A program made the translations under genes and the position numbers. DNA of 64,000 nucleotides, taken from NCBI GenBank assembly GCA_964586915.1, contig CAZPJP010000001.1, positions 11,342 to 75,341 on the forward strand. The letters run 5' to 3'. Every line of letters starts with the position of its first letter. Position 1 is the first letter of the stretch. Origin of the DNA: an uncultured Anaerolineales bacterium. GTDB lineage: Bacteria > Chloroflexota > Anaerolineae > B4-G1 > SLSP01. A model generated the notes under the pieces. That model made no database searches. It saw only the letters and a program-made list of their open reading frames with translations, and was not told where the DNA came from. Below, piece by piece: positions 11,408 through 15,060 of this stretch.

Positions 11408-13123
11408 ATGCGCCCTATGACCAGCAGACGAGCCGCGGCGCTGGTGATGGTCTTGGCCATGCTCCTGGGTTTCGTCGGCACGGATGCCAGGATTGCGTTG
11501 GCTCGTCCTCACGCGCAGACTTACAGCTTTGCCGTGCCAGAGCTGTTGCTGAGCGCGACCGTGCAGCCCGATGGATCTGCCCACATCGTCTACGACATCA
11601 CCTTTGAGAACTATGGGGATCCCATCGATATTGTGGACATCGGTACACCGAACGCCGATTACAGCCTCAGCCAGATGGAGGCGTCCATTGATGGCAACCC
11701 GGTGTCGGATATCCGGCCCTCCGAATACATTGATGTCGGCGTGGAGATCCATCTGGGACCGCACGCCATTCCAGCGGGTGAGATGGGGACGTTGCACCTC
11801 GAGTTCGTATCCCCTGATATGGTCTACGCAGATACGACAAATGAGGACAACGCCTCTTTGCAGATCACGCCAACCTGGTTCGACAGCGACCTGATCCAGG
11901 GCACCAGCGACGTTGAGATCCGCATCAGGATGCTACCGGGCATCGAGCCCGACGAGGTCCTTTATCAAGACGAGCCCTTCGACGATAAGGTGCAAGATAG
12001 CGACGGGCGGGTCGTGGCGATCTGGCGCTATGAGGATGTCCGGCTTACACAGGCCTACCGAGTCGGCGTTTCCTTCCCGCGGCGCGGGATGACTAACGTC
12101 ATCGAGGTTACCTTCTGGGACTTGCTTGGACGGTGGTTGGGGCGAGTCCTCCCCGCGATTGGGGCGGTCCTGATGGTCTGTCTGCCGGTTGTCCTTCCCC
12201 TCTTCTTCATCTTCGTTTTCATCCGCTCTGTTGTCCGCGCCATCAAACCCAACTACCTGCCCCCTATCGCGCAGGTTGAGGGTGGTGGAATCAAACGTGG
12301 CCTCACGGCCCCCGAGGCCGCGGTGGTCCTGGAGCTCCCGCTGACCAAGGTGTTAGGGCTGGTGATCTTCGGGATGCTGGAGAAAGGGCTCGTCCGCCAA
12401 ACCAGCGCGGACCCGCTTACCGTCGAGGTCATCGAGGACTTCCGAGTGGAAGAGAAGCCCGAATTGGCGGACGAAGAGAGCCGGAAGCGTTACCGGCGCC
12501 AGATGGCGCAGCGTGAGGGGACCGTGATTCACGAGTACGAGCACCCGTTCCTTGACCTTATCGAGGCGCACCCTGACGAACCGGTCGCGGAGTTGCCTGT
12601 CATCAAGCCGATGCAGAAGCTGGTGGACGACGTCGCCGCGAAGATGGAGGGATTCGACCTCTCCGACACACAGGACTACTACCGGCGTGTGATCGATCGC
12701 GCAATGGAACAAGCCGCGAGCATCGGCGACATCGAGCAGCGCGAGGCTTATCTCGATAAGTATCTGCCCTGGGTCATGATGCAGCGGGACTACAGGCCGG
12801 CCCTGAGGGTAGGCGGCTACCATTACTGGCCGATGTGGGCACGCCAGTCCCGGAGTACAGTGACCGCTGCCGGAGGCGAGTCAGGAGGGCGCGCTGCCGC
12901 GGGCGGTTCAGGACGAGCATCGACCACCTTCGGGGATGTGTCAGCCTCCTTTGCCGGCTGGGCGGAGACGACGATGGGCGGTATGGCAGCGGCGATTCTG
13001 CCCACGACCCTCAGCAAACCCTCCGCCGGCGGGGCGGCATCACGGGGAGGATCCGGCAGCAGTTGTGCCTGTGCTTGTGCCGGGTGCGCGTGTGCCTGCG
13101 CATGTGCGGGCGGCGGACGATGA
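11408..13123 (+). CDS. DUF2207-like membrane protein with 7-Cys C-terminal tail (paralog 1)
   Basis: ORF 11330..13123. The start is taken at ATG 11408 (MRPMTSRRAAALVMVLAMLLGFVG... signal) and is uncertain by a few codons. It has a beta-rich ectodomain (VQPDGSAHIVYDITFENYG...), a TM block, a LPPIAQVEGGGIKRGLTAPEAAVVLELP motif, a Gly/Ser-rich linker, and ends in SSCACACAGCACACACAGGGR. Confidence 0.75.
   Translation: MRPMTSRRAAALVMVLAMLLGFVGTDARIALARPHAQTYSFAVPELLLSATVQPDGSAHIVYDITFENYGDPIDIVDIGTPNADYSLSQMEASIDGNPVSDIRPSEYIDVGVEIHLGPHAIPAGEMGTLHLEFVSPDMVYADTTNEDNASLQITPTWFDSDLIQGTSDVEIRIRMLPGIEPDEVLYQDEPFDDKVQDSDGRVVAIWRYEDVRLTQAYRVGVSFPRRGMTNVIEVTFWDLLGRWLGRVLPAIGAVLMVCLPVVLPLFFIFVFIRSVVRAIKPNYLPPIAQVEGGGIKRGLTAPEAAVVLELPLTKVLGLVIFGMLEKGLVRQTSADPLTVEVIEDFRVEEKPELADEESRKRYRRQMAQREGTVIHEYEHPFLDLIEAHPDEPVAELPVIKPMQKLVDDVAAKMEGFDLSDTQDYYRRVIDRAMEQAASIGDIEQREAYLDKYLPWVMMQRDYRPALRVGGYHYWPMWARQSRSTVTAAGGESGGRAAAGGSGRASTTFGDVSASFAGWAETTMGGMAAAILPTTLSKPSAGGAASRGGSGSSCACACAGCACACACAGGGR
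13064..13120 (+). other. Cys-Ala tail motif CACACAGCACACACAGGGR (paralog 1)
   Basis: Direct translation: tgt gcc tgt gct tgt gcc ggg tgc gcg tgt gcc tgc gca tgt gcg ggc ggc gga cga, then tga. Confidence 0.95.
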
Positions 13124-13191
13124 GATTGGGCCGCATGGCGGTCGCATAGCGTTGGATTCTGACGAAGAACTTCACGGAGGTACGTATCGAT

Positions 13192-15060
13192 ATGTTTAAG
13201 CGCCTCTCTATGGTAGCCTCGCTTCTTGTCGTGCTCGTGCTGCTGGGCGCCAGCATCAATCCGGCGCATGCGCAGAGTTATGCGTTCCGCGTGCCGAGAT
13301 TGGAATTGCAGGTCTATGTCCAGCCCGATGCCTCAGCCCAGTTAGTTTATGACATTACGTTCGACAATCAGGGCTCGCCGATCGATATCGTCGACATTGG
13401 TCTGCCCCATAGCGACTACGACATCGGCAATATGACGGCCAGCATCGACGGCGTCAGCGTGAGCGATATTCGCACCTCGGAGTTTATAGACATCGGGGTC
13501 GAGATTCACCTGCGTGGACAGGCCATCCAGCCGGGAGAAACAGGGACACTCCACTTCGAGGCCACGATGCCGGATATGGTTTACCAGGACACGACGGACA
13601 GGGATCTCGCCTCGCTCCGTATCACCCCCACCTGGTTTGACGACGAATCGGTCCGAGGGGAGGGCACTATCGGAGTGGCCATCCACTTGCCCGAGGGCGT
13701 GGAGCCAGACGAGGCCCTCTATCAACAAGAGCCCTTCACGGACAAGGCCTTGTTCCAGGGCCGCACCGTCGTCCTCTGGGAGTGGGAGGGGGTTAGGCCC
13801 ACAGGGCCGCGCATGGTCGGGGTCTCTTTCCCCCAGCGTGTGATGACGCGTGTCGAAAGAATGACCTTCATCGACCTCGTGAATCGATGGCTGGCCGACA
13901 ACCCCGGCGCCCGTCTCCTCCTCGGGGGTATCAACGTGGGCCTTTTGGCCTTGCTCTTCTTCCGGTTCTCAGGCGGGACCGGCTGTACGGTGTTTGTAAT
14001 CCTGGCGGGCGGCGCGATTTTGCTCTTCTTCGCTGCGCCTATTCTGATGCTGCCAGCGATACCGGTGCTCGTCGCGCTCGTCATCTTCAACGAAGTTCGT
14101 CTCAGGAAGAAGCCTAGCGATTATCTGCCGCCCATCGCCCATGTAGAGGGGGGCGGCATCAAGCGCGGGCTCACGGCACCTGAGGCCGCGGTCCTGCTGG
14201 AGCTGCCCCTGCACAAGACTCTGACTCTGATTATGTTCGGTTTGCTGGAGAAGGGCATCGTGACCCTCGTGAGACCGGATCCGTTGACCGTGAAGGTCAC
14301 CGACCCATTCAAGACGTGGGACGACCCCGACATGCGACGCTCGAAAAAGAAGCGACACAGCGCTCGGCAAGCTGCAGCTCGACAGGCGGGGACGGTCATT
14401 CACGCTTATGAGGAGGCTTTCCTGGACCAGCTGGAGCGGAATCCGAGCAAGCCGGTGGAGAAGATTGACTTCACCGCGGCAATGGAGGGCCTCATCACGT
14501 CCACCGCTGCCAAGATGGAGGGGTTTGACCTGTCTGAGACGCGGGAATACTACGAACGCGTGGTCTCCCGGGCTATGGAGCAGGCCAGGCAGATGGGTGA
14601 GGTTCAGGAGCGGGAGCAATATCTCGACAAGTACCTGCCTTGGGTGATGATGAACGACAACTATCCGACGGTCCTGACGCGGCCCGGCTATCATTACTGG
14701 CCTATGTGGGCGCGTCCAGCGCGCGGCTCTGTGACCTCAGGTGCCGGCGGTGGGGCGCGAACCGGACGCTCCGGCGGCGGGGGCCAGACCTCCTTCGGCG
14801 ACGTGGCAGCCTCTTTTTCCGGCTGGGCGGAGACGACGATGGGTGGTATGGCCGCGGCGATCCTGCCTAGCTCGATGAACATACCCGGCGCCAAGGGCGG
14901 TTTCGTTGATCTCAGCGGCGTTGATCGCGTCACCGGTGATGTCTTTGAGGCGATGTCCAAGGCCTCGAAGAGCAGCGGCGGGCGTAGTGGGGGCAGCAGC
15001 TGCGCATGTGCGTGCGCCGGTTGCGCCTGCGCCTGCGCGTGTGCGGGAGGCGGTCGCTAG
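13192..15060 (+). CDS. DUF2207-like membrane protein with 7-Cys C-terminal tail (paralog 2)
   Basis: 622 aa, with ACGGAGGT upstream and a signal peptide (MFKRLSMVASLLVVLVLLGASINPAHA). It is collinear with paralog 1 over its whole length, roughly 55-60% identical by eye, and ends in the same SSCACACAGCACACACAGGGR. Confidence 0.8.
   Translation: MFKRLSMVASLLVVLVLLGASINPAHAQSYAFRVPRLELQVYVQPDASAQLVYDITFDNQGSPIDIVDIGLPHSDYDIGNMTASIDGVSVSDIRTSEFIDIGVEIHLRGQAIQPGETGTLHFEATMPDMVYQDTTDRDLASLRITPTWFDDESVRGEGTIGVAIHLPEGVEPDEALYQQEPFTDKALFQGRTVVLWEWEGVRPTGPRMVGVSFPQRVMTRVERMTFIDLVNRWLADNPGARLLLGGINVGLLALLFFRFSGGTGCTVFVILAGGAILLFFAAPILMLPAIPVLVALVIFNEVRLRKKPSDYLPPIAHVEGGGIKRGLTAPEAAVLLELPLHKTLTLIMFGLLEKGIVTLVRPDPLTVKVTDPFKTWDDPDMRRSKKKRHSARQAAARQAGTVIHAYEEAFLDQLERNPSKPVEKIDFTAAMEGLITSTAAKMEGFDLSETREYYERVVSRAMEQARQMGEVQEREQYLDKYLPWVMMNDNYPTVLTRPGYHYWPMWARPARGSVTSGAGGGARTGRSGGGGQTSFGDVAASFSGWAETTMGGMAAAILPSSMNIPGAKGGFVDLSGVDRVTGDVFEAMSKASKSSGGRSGGSSCACACAGCACACACAGGGR
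15001..15057 (+). other. Cys-Ala tail motif CACACAGCACACACAGGGR (paralog 2)
   Basis: Direct translation: tgc gca tgt gcg tgc gcc ggt tgc gcc tgc gcc tgc gcg tgt gcg gga ggc ggt cgc, then tag. Confidence 0.95.

Follow-up and report, generated by a model that had tools for sequence, protein, structure and literature searches.

Two adjacent forward-strand genes of an uncultured Anaerolineales bacterium encode membrane proteins with the same short, cysteine-rich C-terminus, and this locus raises the question of what that terminus is for. The genes lie in a stretch of 64,000 nucleotides (contig CAZPJP010000001.1, positions 11,342 to 75,341), which was analysed at its full length and is referred to as the window. 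Tail protein A (11408..13123, 571 residues) is predicted to consist of a signal peptide, a β-sandwich ectodomain, one transmembrane segment, a cytoplasmic domain, a Gly/Ser linker and the tail. The start at 11330 given in the list of open reading frames is probably too early for A, and 11408 was used. Tail protein B (13192..15060, 622 residues) is predicted to have a signal peptide, an ectodomain, three transmembrane helices, a cytoplasmic domain, an amphipathic helix and a disordered linker that runs into the tail. The core tail is CACACAGCACACACAGGGR in both proteins (13064..13120 in A and 15001..15057 in B) and holds seven cysteines within 15 residues, all of them as C-A-C or C-A-G-C; A and B each have one further cysteine outside the tail. 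On balance we think it probable that the tail is a substrate of the radical S-adenosylmethionine (SAM) system encoded beside it, and thus a protein-tethered core peptide of the kind found in RiPPs (peptides that are made on ribosomes and modified after translation). The grounds are its restriction to one protein family, its near-obligate linkage in two domains of life to a radical SAM/SPASM enzyme bearing a RiPP recognition element (RRE), the predicted tethering of a disordered tail on the cytoplasmic side and a leader–spacer–core layout.

The original prediction, made from the letters of the window, was that the two tails are conserved as peptides and not as DNA, and its particulars held. Positions 13058..13120 and 14995..15057 both translate to SSCACACAGCACACACAGGGR, with seven cysteines each, and differ synonymously at 12 of the 21 sense codons, with one third-position change per codon; the stop codons are TGA in A and TAG in B. 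Counted over 66 nucleotides, the two tails differ at 14. The Gly/Ser-rich stretch immediately upstream has diverged, A being gapped by 22 + 2 residues relative to B. Over 557 aligned residues, A and B share 316 (57% identity). Where both have the same residue, the codon is also the same at 9 of 21 positions in the tail (0.43) and, outside the tail, at 120 of 276 (0.43). The silent sites of the tail are therefore as diverged as those of the whole gene, which rules out a recent gene conversion and makes the tail no younger than the rest of the duplication. A degenerate DNA pattern for CACACAGGGR followed by a stop codon has exactly two matches in the window and was found in 0 of 100 dinucleotide-preserving shuffles. 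That the identity is a DNA-level artefact, arising from recent gene conversion or from a slipping GC-rich microsatellite, has next to no probability. Tandem Repeats Finder does report a weak 27-nucleotide repeat of 2.2 copies at 13053..13111, which reflects the CACACAG/CACACACAG repeat of the peptide, but the artefact is refuted by the 12 synonymous codon differences, by the equal silent-site identity of tail and gene and by the recurrence of the same peptide with scrambled codons in at least 120 genomes from two domains of life.

The tail was then followed through the protein family. The exact window protein is recorded in NCBI, and its closest other homolog is 86% identical. B has at least 949 homologs; among the matches listed, which span 54–100% identity, all 120 of 120 end in CACAGCACACACAGGGR, with two or three Cys-Ala units preceding the central glycine. 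An exhaustive HMMER search with A, in which each 50%-identity cluster was represented by a single sequence, reached 716 clusters at E-values up to 1e-3, so that the family comprises at least 716 clusters at 50% identity. Among the matches listed, 109 of the 118 full-length representatives (480 residues or more), with identities as low as about 31%, carry a (Cys-X)n...GGGx tail, which in nearly every case reads (CA)n-[G/S]-(CA)m-GGGR; the nine exceptions are apparently truncated, frameshifted or near variants. A search seeded with the member from Ornatilinea apprima returned at least 3641 further proteins. Two forms of the tail predominate: CACA(CA)GCACACACAGGGR on window-like proteins of about 620 residues, and CACACACAGCACACAGGGR on proteins of about 560 residues. 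Rarer tails lack the central glycine (about 10%), have serine in its place or differ in the number of cysteines. The number of Cys-Ala units per tail ranges from 2 to 9 with a mode of 7, and the family-wide mean of cysteines outside the tail is 1 to 2.4. The tail is thus essentially invariant among the homologs, neither absent from relatives nor freely varying in them. Family members are typically 520–660 residues long, and the A-type representative P0121, 70% identical to A, has the same architecture. Six representatives (P0141, P0150, P0173, P0192, P0197 and P0212) are longer, at 766–948 residues, with extra N-terminal sequence and the same tail at the end.

The tail positions of 128 distinct loci draw on both cysteine codons, on all four alanine and all four glycine codons, on all six arginine codons and on each of the three stop codons; these loci were chosen and grouped by their tail, and the codon table speaks for the scrambling of silent sites and is not independent proof of amino-acid invariance. 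As judged from this scrambling of synonymous sites, selection acts on the tail peptide. Near-invariance of the peptide down to about 31% identity, together with synonymous codons and stops that are mixed across lineages, bears out the earlier view that neither conversion nor slippage accounts for the tail. The family appears to have neither a Pfam or NCBIfam model nor a description in print: a Pfam and NCBIfam scan of A and B at E-values up to 0.01 gave no match, and searches of the literature for the tail string, DUF2207, radical SAM/SPASM enzymes with a Cys-rich tail, Cys-Ala repeats and RiPPs in Anaerolineae or Asgard archaea found no description of tail or cassette. A proteome paper on Methanococcus voltae was set aside, its radical SAM proteins being unrelated.

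A search for the C-terminal pattern in other organisms was run at the DNA level, using the degenerate pattern given above on GTDB genomes, one per species. The flanks of the loci so obtained were limited to 8 kb blocks, so co-occurrence counts taken from them are lower bounds; their open reading frames were taken from stop to stop and assigned by phmmer against the window proteins. The pattern occurs in at least 120 loci, most of them from Anaerolineae and other Chloroflexota. The other bacterial hosts are Planctomycetota (Thermoguttaceae, Pirellulales), Acidobacteriota, Aminicenantes, Zixibacteria, Hydrogenedentes, Coatesbacteria, Fermentibacteria (Sabulitectum, Hyd24-12), Clostridia, Syntrophothermus and two metagenome-assembled genomes (MAGs), one of Polyangiaceae and one of Pseudomonadota. 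The archaeal hosts are Methanomassiliicoccales, other Thermoplasmatota and the Asgard groups Heimdall-, Hod- and Promethearchaeota. The family thereby extends over no fewer than twelve bacterial phyla and three lineages of archaea, and the host taxa are anaerobes. In 114 of these loci (at least 120) a window-protein homolog ends in the pattern, and in the remainder the match lies at the edge of the stored DNA. In this sample the tail is therefore specific to one protein family. Two hosts are in culture: Ornatilinea apprima P3M-1 (WP_075064617.1) and Leptolinea tardivitalis (WP_062423379.1). NCBI lists their proteins as 'hypothetical protein' and UniRef as 'DUF2207 domain-containing protein'.

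The genes for A and B belong to a cassette of eight genes on the same strand with short gaps between them, from 6577 to 15806 of the window. The cassette begins with a 113-residue zinc-ribbon membrane protein (6577..6918), which has two transmembrane helices and a predicted cytoplasmic CxxC...CxxC motif and ends in YQIEEAPKW; this partner protein may itself be a second substrate. There follow a radical SAM/SPASM enzyme (7141..8646), a 178-residue polytopic membrane protein (8756..9292), a 237-residue protein (9319..10032), a paralog of the radical SAM enzyme without its catalytic motif (10056..11348, here called the pseudo-radical-SAM paralog), A, B and a class I SAM-dependent methyltransferase (15066..15806). 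The 178-residue protein has no family match in Pfam or NCBIfam, occurs only in cassettes of the window type (type A) and is kept in the loci L001, L002 and L005. The 237-residue protein is likewise found only in type A cassettes, at a conserved position, and matches the SAM-binding activation domain of methionine synthase only marginally (PF02965, 1.5e-5, 25 bits, exactly at the cut-off).

Homologs with 86%, about 60% and 55% identity are surrounded by genes in the same order as in the window. A second arrangement (type B), which is the commoner one in the GTDB loci and is exemplified by O. apprima, consists of the zinc-ribbon protein, the tail protein, the radical SAM/SPASM enzyme, a radical SAM paralog without the cluster motif and the methyltransferase. 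A radical SAM/SPASM gene adjoins 89 of the 109 tail-bearing genes with usable flanks, and most of the other 20 lie in window-type loci that are cut off upstream. Of the type B loci whose flanks are long enough, 43 of 47 carry the zinc-ribbon gene, 35 of 54 the dead paralog and 28 of 39 the methyltransferase. The same cassette is found in Chloroflexota, Planctomycetota, Acidobacteriota, Fermentibacteria, Clostridia, Methanomassiliicoccales, Thermoplasmatota and Asgard archaea. Three heimdallarchaeial loci (L032, L044 and L070) have the tail protein and the radical SAM enzyme, with the methyltransferase in two of the three; no recognisable zinc-ribbon gene was found near these cassettes. No protease, peptidase, exporter or transporter is conserved in the cassettes compared.

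Two loci show insertions. In L002 a Ser/Thr protein kinase gene (4165..5463) lies between the genes for the radical SAM enzyme and the 178-residue membrane protein in an otherwise identical cassette. In L004 (4609..13275), whose tail protein is 55% identical to B, genes for a glycosyltransferase, a short-chain dehydrogenase and a DegT-type aminotransferase are interspersed among those of the cassette. Only one tail gene is present there and the methyltransferase is missing, a hint that this lineage may use another or a further decoration, perhaps with sugar.

The radical SAM/SPASM enzyme has 501 residues and matches PF04055 (5e-27) and PF13186 (2e-11). Its radical SAM motif, CNNACPHC, is encoded at 7603..7626 and its SPASM motif, CWDCPDLEMCGGGC (CX2CX5CX3C), at 8458..8499. 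Eight cysteines of the SPASM region are conserved across 74 orthologs and would suffice for two auxiliary clusters; CX2CX5CX3C is also present in 82 of 84 orthologs, which had been selected as having CxxxCxxC. The nearest sequences in the PDB are PqqE (7e-22), SkfB (1e-19), BlsE and SuiB (5e-6). The enzyme stays below every curated NCBIfam cut-off, including those of AhbD (131 versus 500), GeoRSP (129 versus 400), PqqE (126 versus 381), MftC (98 versus 265), SkfB (90 versus 300) and NirJ2. An additional conserved cysteine of the CPxC type ('SPCPTC', C122, 84% conserved) is located at residues ~119–125, between the PqqD-like domain and the radical SAM core of the active enzymes, and is lost in the dead paralogs.

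The pseudo-radical-SAM paralog (430 residues; SPASM 8e-5, PqqD 0.0098) is 25% identical to the enzyme over its full length (1e-33). It lacks CxxxCxxC, the cluster loop being replaced, and keeps the SPASM motif CEVCPGLAICAAAC at 11271..11312. The earlier mention of adjacent radical SAM/SPASM enzymes in the plural is accordingly right for 7141..8646, where CxxxCxxC is present, and has to be amended for 10056..11348, which is SPASM only. The dead paralog of type B cassettes shares 34% identity with its enzyme, and its SPASM cysteines are gone as well; CX2CX5CX3C is retained in 10 of 51 paralogs from other loci that were picked by their lack of CxxxCxxC. The N-terminal ~120 residues of both proteins (about residues 25–120 in the enzyme) form a PqqD-like RRE. 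PF05402 was matched by 42 of 48 N-terminal domains sampled from the enzymes and paralogs (best E-value 5e-9), and a profile of the domain matched the lasso-peptide leader binders TfuB1 (2e-8) and TbiB1 (7e-3) in the PDB. Judged by these sequence features, the cassette pairs an active enzyme with a pseudo-enzyme, each of them equipped for holding a peptide. The tail had also been put forward as a possible substrate of the neighbouring radical SAM/SPASM enzymes, and both the synteny across phyla and the two prokaryotic domains and the PqqD-type RREs support this. The methyltransferase, the last gene of the cassette, has 246 residues and matches PF08241 (4e-18); its best NCBIfam match is the DVU_1556 family (59 bits against a cut-off of 155), and only generic methyltransferases were matched in the PDB. 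Arsenic methylation of the ArsM kind was considered for it and rejected, since it has a single cysteine and only generic class I similarity.

Radical SAM enzymes work in the cytoplasm, and the topology of the tail proteins matters for this reason. Both A and B have a signal peptide, an odd number of transmembrane segments (one in A and three in B) and a basic stretch after the last of them, followed by a conserved YLPPI..VEGGGIKRGLTAPEAA motif. The C-terminal domain and the tail are accordingly predicted to be cytoplasmic in both. The AlphaFold2 model of B, with a mean predicted local distance difference test (pLDDT) score of 80, comprises the signal peptide, the β-sandwich ectodomain (residues 32–214), three transmembrane helices (226–306), a cytoplasmic winged-helix-like unit with a helical bundle (329–495), an amphipathic helix (542–556) and about 60 disordered residues that include the tail, for which pLDDT is below 35. 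Foldseek matched the whole model through the ectodomain only, to ribophorin I/OST1 and to the N-domain of M1 aminopeptidase. The cytoplasmic domain of B modelled alone (residues 308–560, window 14113..14871; pLDDT 85, predicted template-modelling score 0.81) had no fold match in the PDB, the best Foldseek E-value being 2.8.

The last ~80 residues of B have the layout of a RiPP precursor, with a conserved short motif, a variable Gly/Ser spacer and an invariant core. The motif, VDLSGVDRVTGDVFEAM (14905..14955), is leader-like, lies 16 residues upstream of the core and is a candidate docking site for the PqqD-like elements. In 120 B-type homologs DLSG.D.VTGD.F.A is conserved at 80–95% or more, and the spacer to the core is variable in its Gly/Ser sequence. 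Tail proteins from type B cassettes have the motif FTxxxTxxTNPxP in place of DLSGxDxVTGDxFxA.

If the tail is modified by the co-encoded enzymes, the following scheme may be proposed. The core peptide would be presented on the cytoplasmic side, where a flexible Gly/Ser tether would connect it to a protein that crosses the membrane once or three times. The radical SAM/SPASM enzyme, probably with its catalytically dead paralog, would act as the maturase, both proteins contributing PqqD-type peptide recognition. Thioethers from the cysteine sulfurs to carbons of neighbouring alanines (sactionine-like or ranthionine/lanthionine-like) would be formed iteratively by radical chemistry, either at the α carbon, as in sactionines, or at the β carbon, giving lanthionine by a radical route. 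The methyltransferase might then cap a remaining thiol or the C-terminus, and the product would stay on the membrane protein as a rigid appendage, possibly one that binds a metal or a partner. Any one specific chemistry is considerably less probable than modification as such. Thioethers to alanine would be the likeliest, because only cysteine, alanine and glycine are available and thioether-forming enzymes are among the closest relatives; epimerisation, or S-methylation by the methyltransferase, is also possible. That tails differ in their number of Cys-Ala units and can do without the central glycine points to iterative processing of a repeat rather than to a fixed hairpin or a fixed metal site. 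The modified tail probably stays on the protein, given that no protease or exporter is conserved and that the protein body itself is. A hairpin of disulfides or a thioether ladder centred on the middle glycine is not required, since about 10% of tails lack that glycine and the number of units varies. A formylglycine motif of the type used by anaerobic sulfatase-maturing enzymes (C/S-x-P/A-x-R) was likewise discarded, because no tail cysteine has Pro/Ala at +2 together with Arg at +4.

Several points weigh against modification of the tail. All of the support is comparative, and the modification is a prediction. About five loci with adequate flanks (L011, L034, L038, L054 and L120) have a tail gene without a radical SAM neighbour, although the MAG that contains L034 also carries a second tail gene with a radical SAM gene, in L086. 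The pseudo-radical-SAM paralog and the methyltransferase are present in only about 65–72% of the type B loci with enough flank. A-type paralogs, A itself included, consistently lack the DLSGxDxVTGD motif and yet keep the core tail. The cores of RiPPs usually vary and their leaders are conserved, so that the invariant core found here fits a cofactor-like or ligand role equally well. Seven thiols within 15 residues would bind soft metals or iron–sulfur clusters regardless of any modification, and the PKW terminus of the zinc-ribbon protein could be the real substrate of the radical SAM enzyme, or a second one.

The last two of these points lead to the main competing explanations. The tail could be an unmodified metal-binding or iron–sulfur-binding module resembling metallothionein, which would chelate soft metals or ligate or shuttle a metal–sulfur cluster at the membrane; the radical SAM/SPASM pair would then use it as a cluster ligand or scaffold, or would act on something else. 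We think this rather unlikely, though it is the alternative to which we give most weight. Seven cysteines in 15 residues arranged in C-X-C runs are what such a module would offer, the thiols would stay reduced in anaerobic hosts, the window-type pseudo-radical-SAM paralog keeps SPASM and not the catalytic motif, as expected of a cluster carrier, and a core as strictly invariant as this one is more reminiscent of a ligand sphere than of the usual core of a RiPP. Against this, the residues between the cysteines are invariably alanine, where metallothioneins tolerate many residues, the number of cysteines varies from 2 to 9, no metallothionein or metal-transport family was matched, and the PqqD-type domains on both enzymes, the conserved GGGR C-terminus and the methyltransferase would be left unexplained. 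The original prediction had described the tail as metallothionein-like, and as a family assignment this did not survive: the tail is a 19-residue appendage of membrane proteins of 520–660 residues with invariant alanine between the cysteines, and metallothionein models in Pfam and NCBIfam matched neither the window proteins nor 71 family members at E-values up to 1. Metal binding and modification do not exclude each other, as a modified tail could still bind metal.

The other candidate substrate is the C-terminus of the zinc-ribbon protein (...EEPKW), which could receive, for example, a streptide-like Lys-Trp cross-link; the Cys-Ala tail would then serve some other purpose, such as redox sensing, metal binding or docking, or would be linked to the zinc-ribbon terminus. 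This terminus is near-invariant as ...YQ[IL]xEEPKW-COOH, with PKW in 73 of 75 homologs, and its adjacent Lys-Trp pair recalls the cross-links made by streptide-type radical SAM enzymes; SuiB, a Lys-Trp cross-linking radical SAM/SPASM enzyme, is among the PDB sequence matches. Orthologs of the zinc-ribbon protein, which has only weak zinc-ribbon matches in Pfam, are found in L002, L004 and L005, and in most loci its gene is located upstream of the one for the tail protein. Its linkage (43 of 47 type B loci) is tighter than that of the methyltransferase or the pseudo-radical-SAM paralog, and two RRE-bearing proteins could serve two substrates. As the only substrate, however, the PKW terminus is hard to reconcile with the three heimdallarchaeial loci, which have the tail protein and the radical SAM enzyme and no recognisable zinc-ribbon gene nearby. 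The motif is moreover KVKW or NVNW in Promethearchaeota, and the protein is a folded domain up to its C-terminal hexapeptide, with no leader–spacer–core layout. We therefore regard this explanation as distinctly unlikely, and the zinc-ribbon protein may instead be a second substrate or a binding or docking partner. Still less likely, in our estimate, is that the membrane protein is a giant leader from which the modified tail is cleaved to give a small cofactor or a natural product that is secreted, as with pyrroloquinoline quinone (PQQ) or mycofactocin. Such a pathway would share with PqqA/PqqE and MftA/MftC a C-terminal core, a radical SAM/SPASM enzyme and PqqD-type recognition, and an invariant core is typical of cofactor precursors; the cassette, though, has no conserved protease, peptidase or exporter, and the ~500 residues upstream are well conserved, with an ectodomain and a cytoplasmic domain of their own.

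In its fuller form, modification of the tail would amount to a distinct maturation pathway shared by anaerobic Bacteria and Archaea, the Asgard archaea included. The radical SAM/SPASM enzyme and its dead paralog would convert the poly(Cys-Ala) C-terminus into a cross-linked and/or metal-binding appendage, a thioether 'ladder' or a radical-route lanthionine, acting with the EEPKW terminus of the zinc-ribbon partner at the cytoplasmic face of the membrane. We put this forward tentatively, as a scheme that is somewhat more likely to be wrong in part than right as a whole.

Functionally, the closest known systems appear to be those in which radical SAM/SPASM enzymes mature RiPPs. On the enzyme side, the radical SAM core, the SPASM domain, the RRE and a linked Cys-bearing precursor can all be recognised in the cassette; the precursor is not a short, cleaved, exported peptide, and no curated family was matched. 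The maturases of ranthipeptides/SCIFF (PapA/PapB, CteA/CteB) and sactipeptides (SkfB, AlbA) resemble the window system in having a radical SAM/SPASM enzyme with an N-terminal PqqD-like element beside a precursor with a cysteine repeat; in PapA six Cys-X3-Asp/Glu units are processed iteratively. They differ in that their precursors have 40–60 residues, whereas the precursor here is a membrane protein of 520–660 residues. The core here is invariant across phyla, the acceptors can only be alanine or glycine, there is no protease or exporter, and a dead paralog and a methyltransferase are added. QhpC/QhpD and the anaerobic sulfatase-maturing enzymes (anSMEs) are similar in that a radical SAM/SPASM enzyme acts on a full-size protein. 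QhpD and anSME modify cysteines of proteins that retain the modification in their mature form; QhpC is a small soluble subunit with Cys-to-Asp/Glu links, and anSME needs C/S-x-P/A-x-R. The tail, in contrast, has no anSME motif, and the radical SAM enzyme of the window is close to neither family model.

The pathways to PQQ (PqqA/PqqE/PqqD) and mycofactocin (MftA/MftC/MftB) share with the cassette an invariant C-terminal core and a radical SAM/SPASM enzyme with PqqD-type recognition. PqqE is the best PDB match of the enzyme, whose scores against TIGR02109 (126 bits) and TIGR03962 (98 bits) are both below the cut-off. Their precursors, however, are short, the product is released and the chemistry takes place on Glu/Tyr or Val-Tyr and not on cysteine; the cassette gives no sign of release. 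Metallothioneins have in common with the tail dense C-X-C runs and the lack of aromatic residues in the Cys-rich stretch. The tail differs from them in not being a small stand-alone protein, in consisting of one Cys stretch only, with alanine as the invariant X and an invariant GGGR, and in its linkage to peptide-modifying enzymes. An active radical SAM/SPASM enzyme accompanied by a relative without the catalytic cluster is also known from GeoRSP, from TIGR04347 (pseudo-SAM/SPASM of Halobacteria) and from the ACGX-repeat systems, all described from genome mining only, and the ACGX system has a repeated Cys-containing target as well. The scores against these models are far below their cut-offs (129 versus 400, 119 versus 525 and 15.5 versus 400, respectively), and the target protein is unrelated.

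For the protein body, the nearest likeness is to DUF2207/TIGR04222 proteins, which have a signal peptide, a β-sandwich ectodomain, transmembrane segments, a cytoplasmic 'GLTxPEAAxLLE' motif resembling helix–turn–helix and a Gly-rich low-complexity C-terminus, an architecture that we take to be defining for DUF2207. The DUF2207 models of Pfam gave no threshold match for the window proteins or for the members from Ornatilinea and Leptolinea that are so named in UniRef. When 71 members were scanned at E-values up to 1, PF09972 and PF20990 gave sub-threshold matches in three members each (best E-value 0.01) and TIGR04222 a weak match in four (best E-value 7.8e-5), none of them in the window proteins. 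From the UniRef names, the weak matches in three to four of the 71 members and the similar architecture, the body is probably a distant relative of these membrane proteins, with membership unproven. To our knowledge, ordinary DUF2207 proteins are not linked to radical SAM enzymes and do not have an invariant Cys-Ala tail. The function of DUF2207 is itself unknown (PMC10457818).

If the tail is indeed modified, a chemistry of the RiPP type would here build a permanent feature of a large and widely conserved membrane protein instead of an exported peptide. A substrate made up of cysteine, alanine and glycine alone would limit the chemistry to a few easily distinguished outcomes, namely Cys-Ala thioethers (α or β), epimerisation, S-methylation and disulfide formation or metal ligation. 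The family is large (at least 716 clusters and thousands of sequences) for one that has neither model nor literature, and the cultured hosts make the question directly testable. An answer would provide the first functional handle on membrane proteins like those of DUF2207/TIGR04222 with low-complexity C-termini.

The surroundings of the cassette may be described briefly. A promoter-like site (TTGACG, 16 nucleotides, TATACT; 6510..6537, forward strand) precedes the first gene and is a possible start of the operon; it has 10 of 12 consensus matches, the best in the region, and is a weak candidate identified by consensus match only. Directly upstream of the cassette, at 5039..6343 on the forward strand, there is a gene for a full-length serpin (PF00079, 4e-119), whose N-terminus has a hydrophobic leader like that of a lipoprotein, and a serpin also adjoins the cassette in the 86%-identical relative (L001). 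Further downstream, a locus resembling those of Tc toxins occupies the most GC-rich part of the window (0.65–0.69). It includes, both on the reverse strand, a 1315-residue protein with a TcA C-terminal TcB-binding domain (29482..33429, 5e-54) and a 2426-residue protein that combines SpvB and TcdB middle domains with RHS repeats (34850..42130), in the manner of a TcB/TcC-like fusion.

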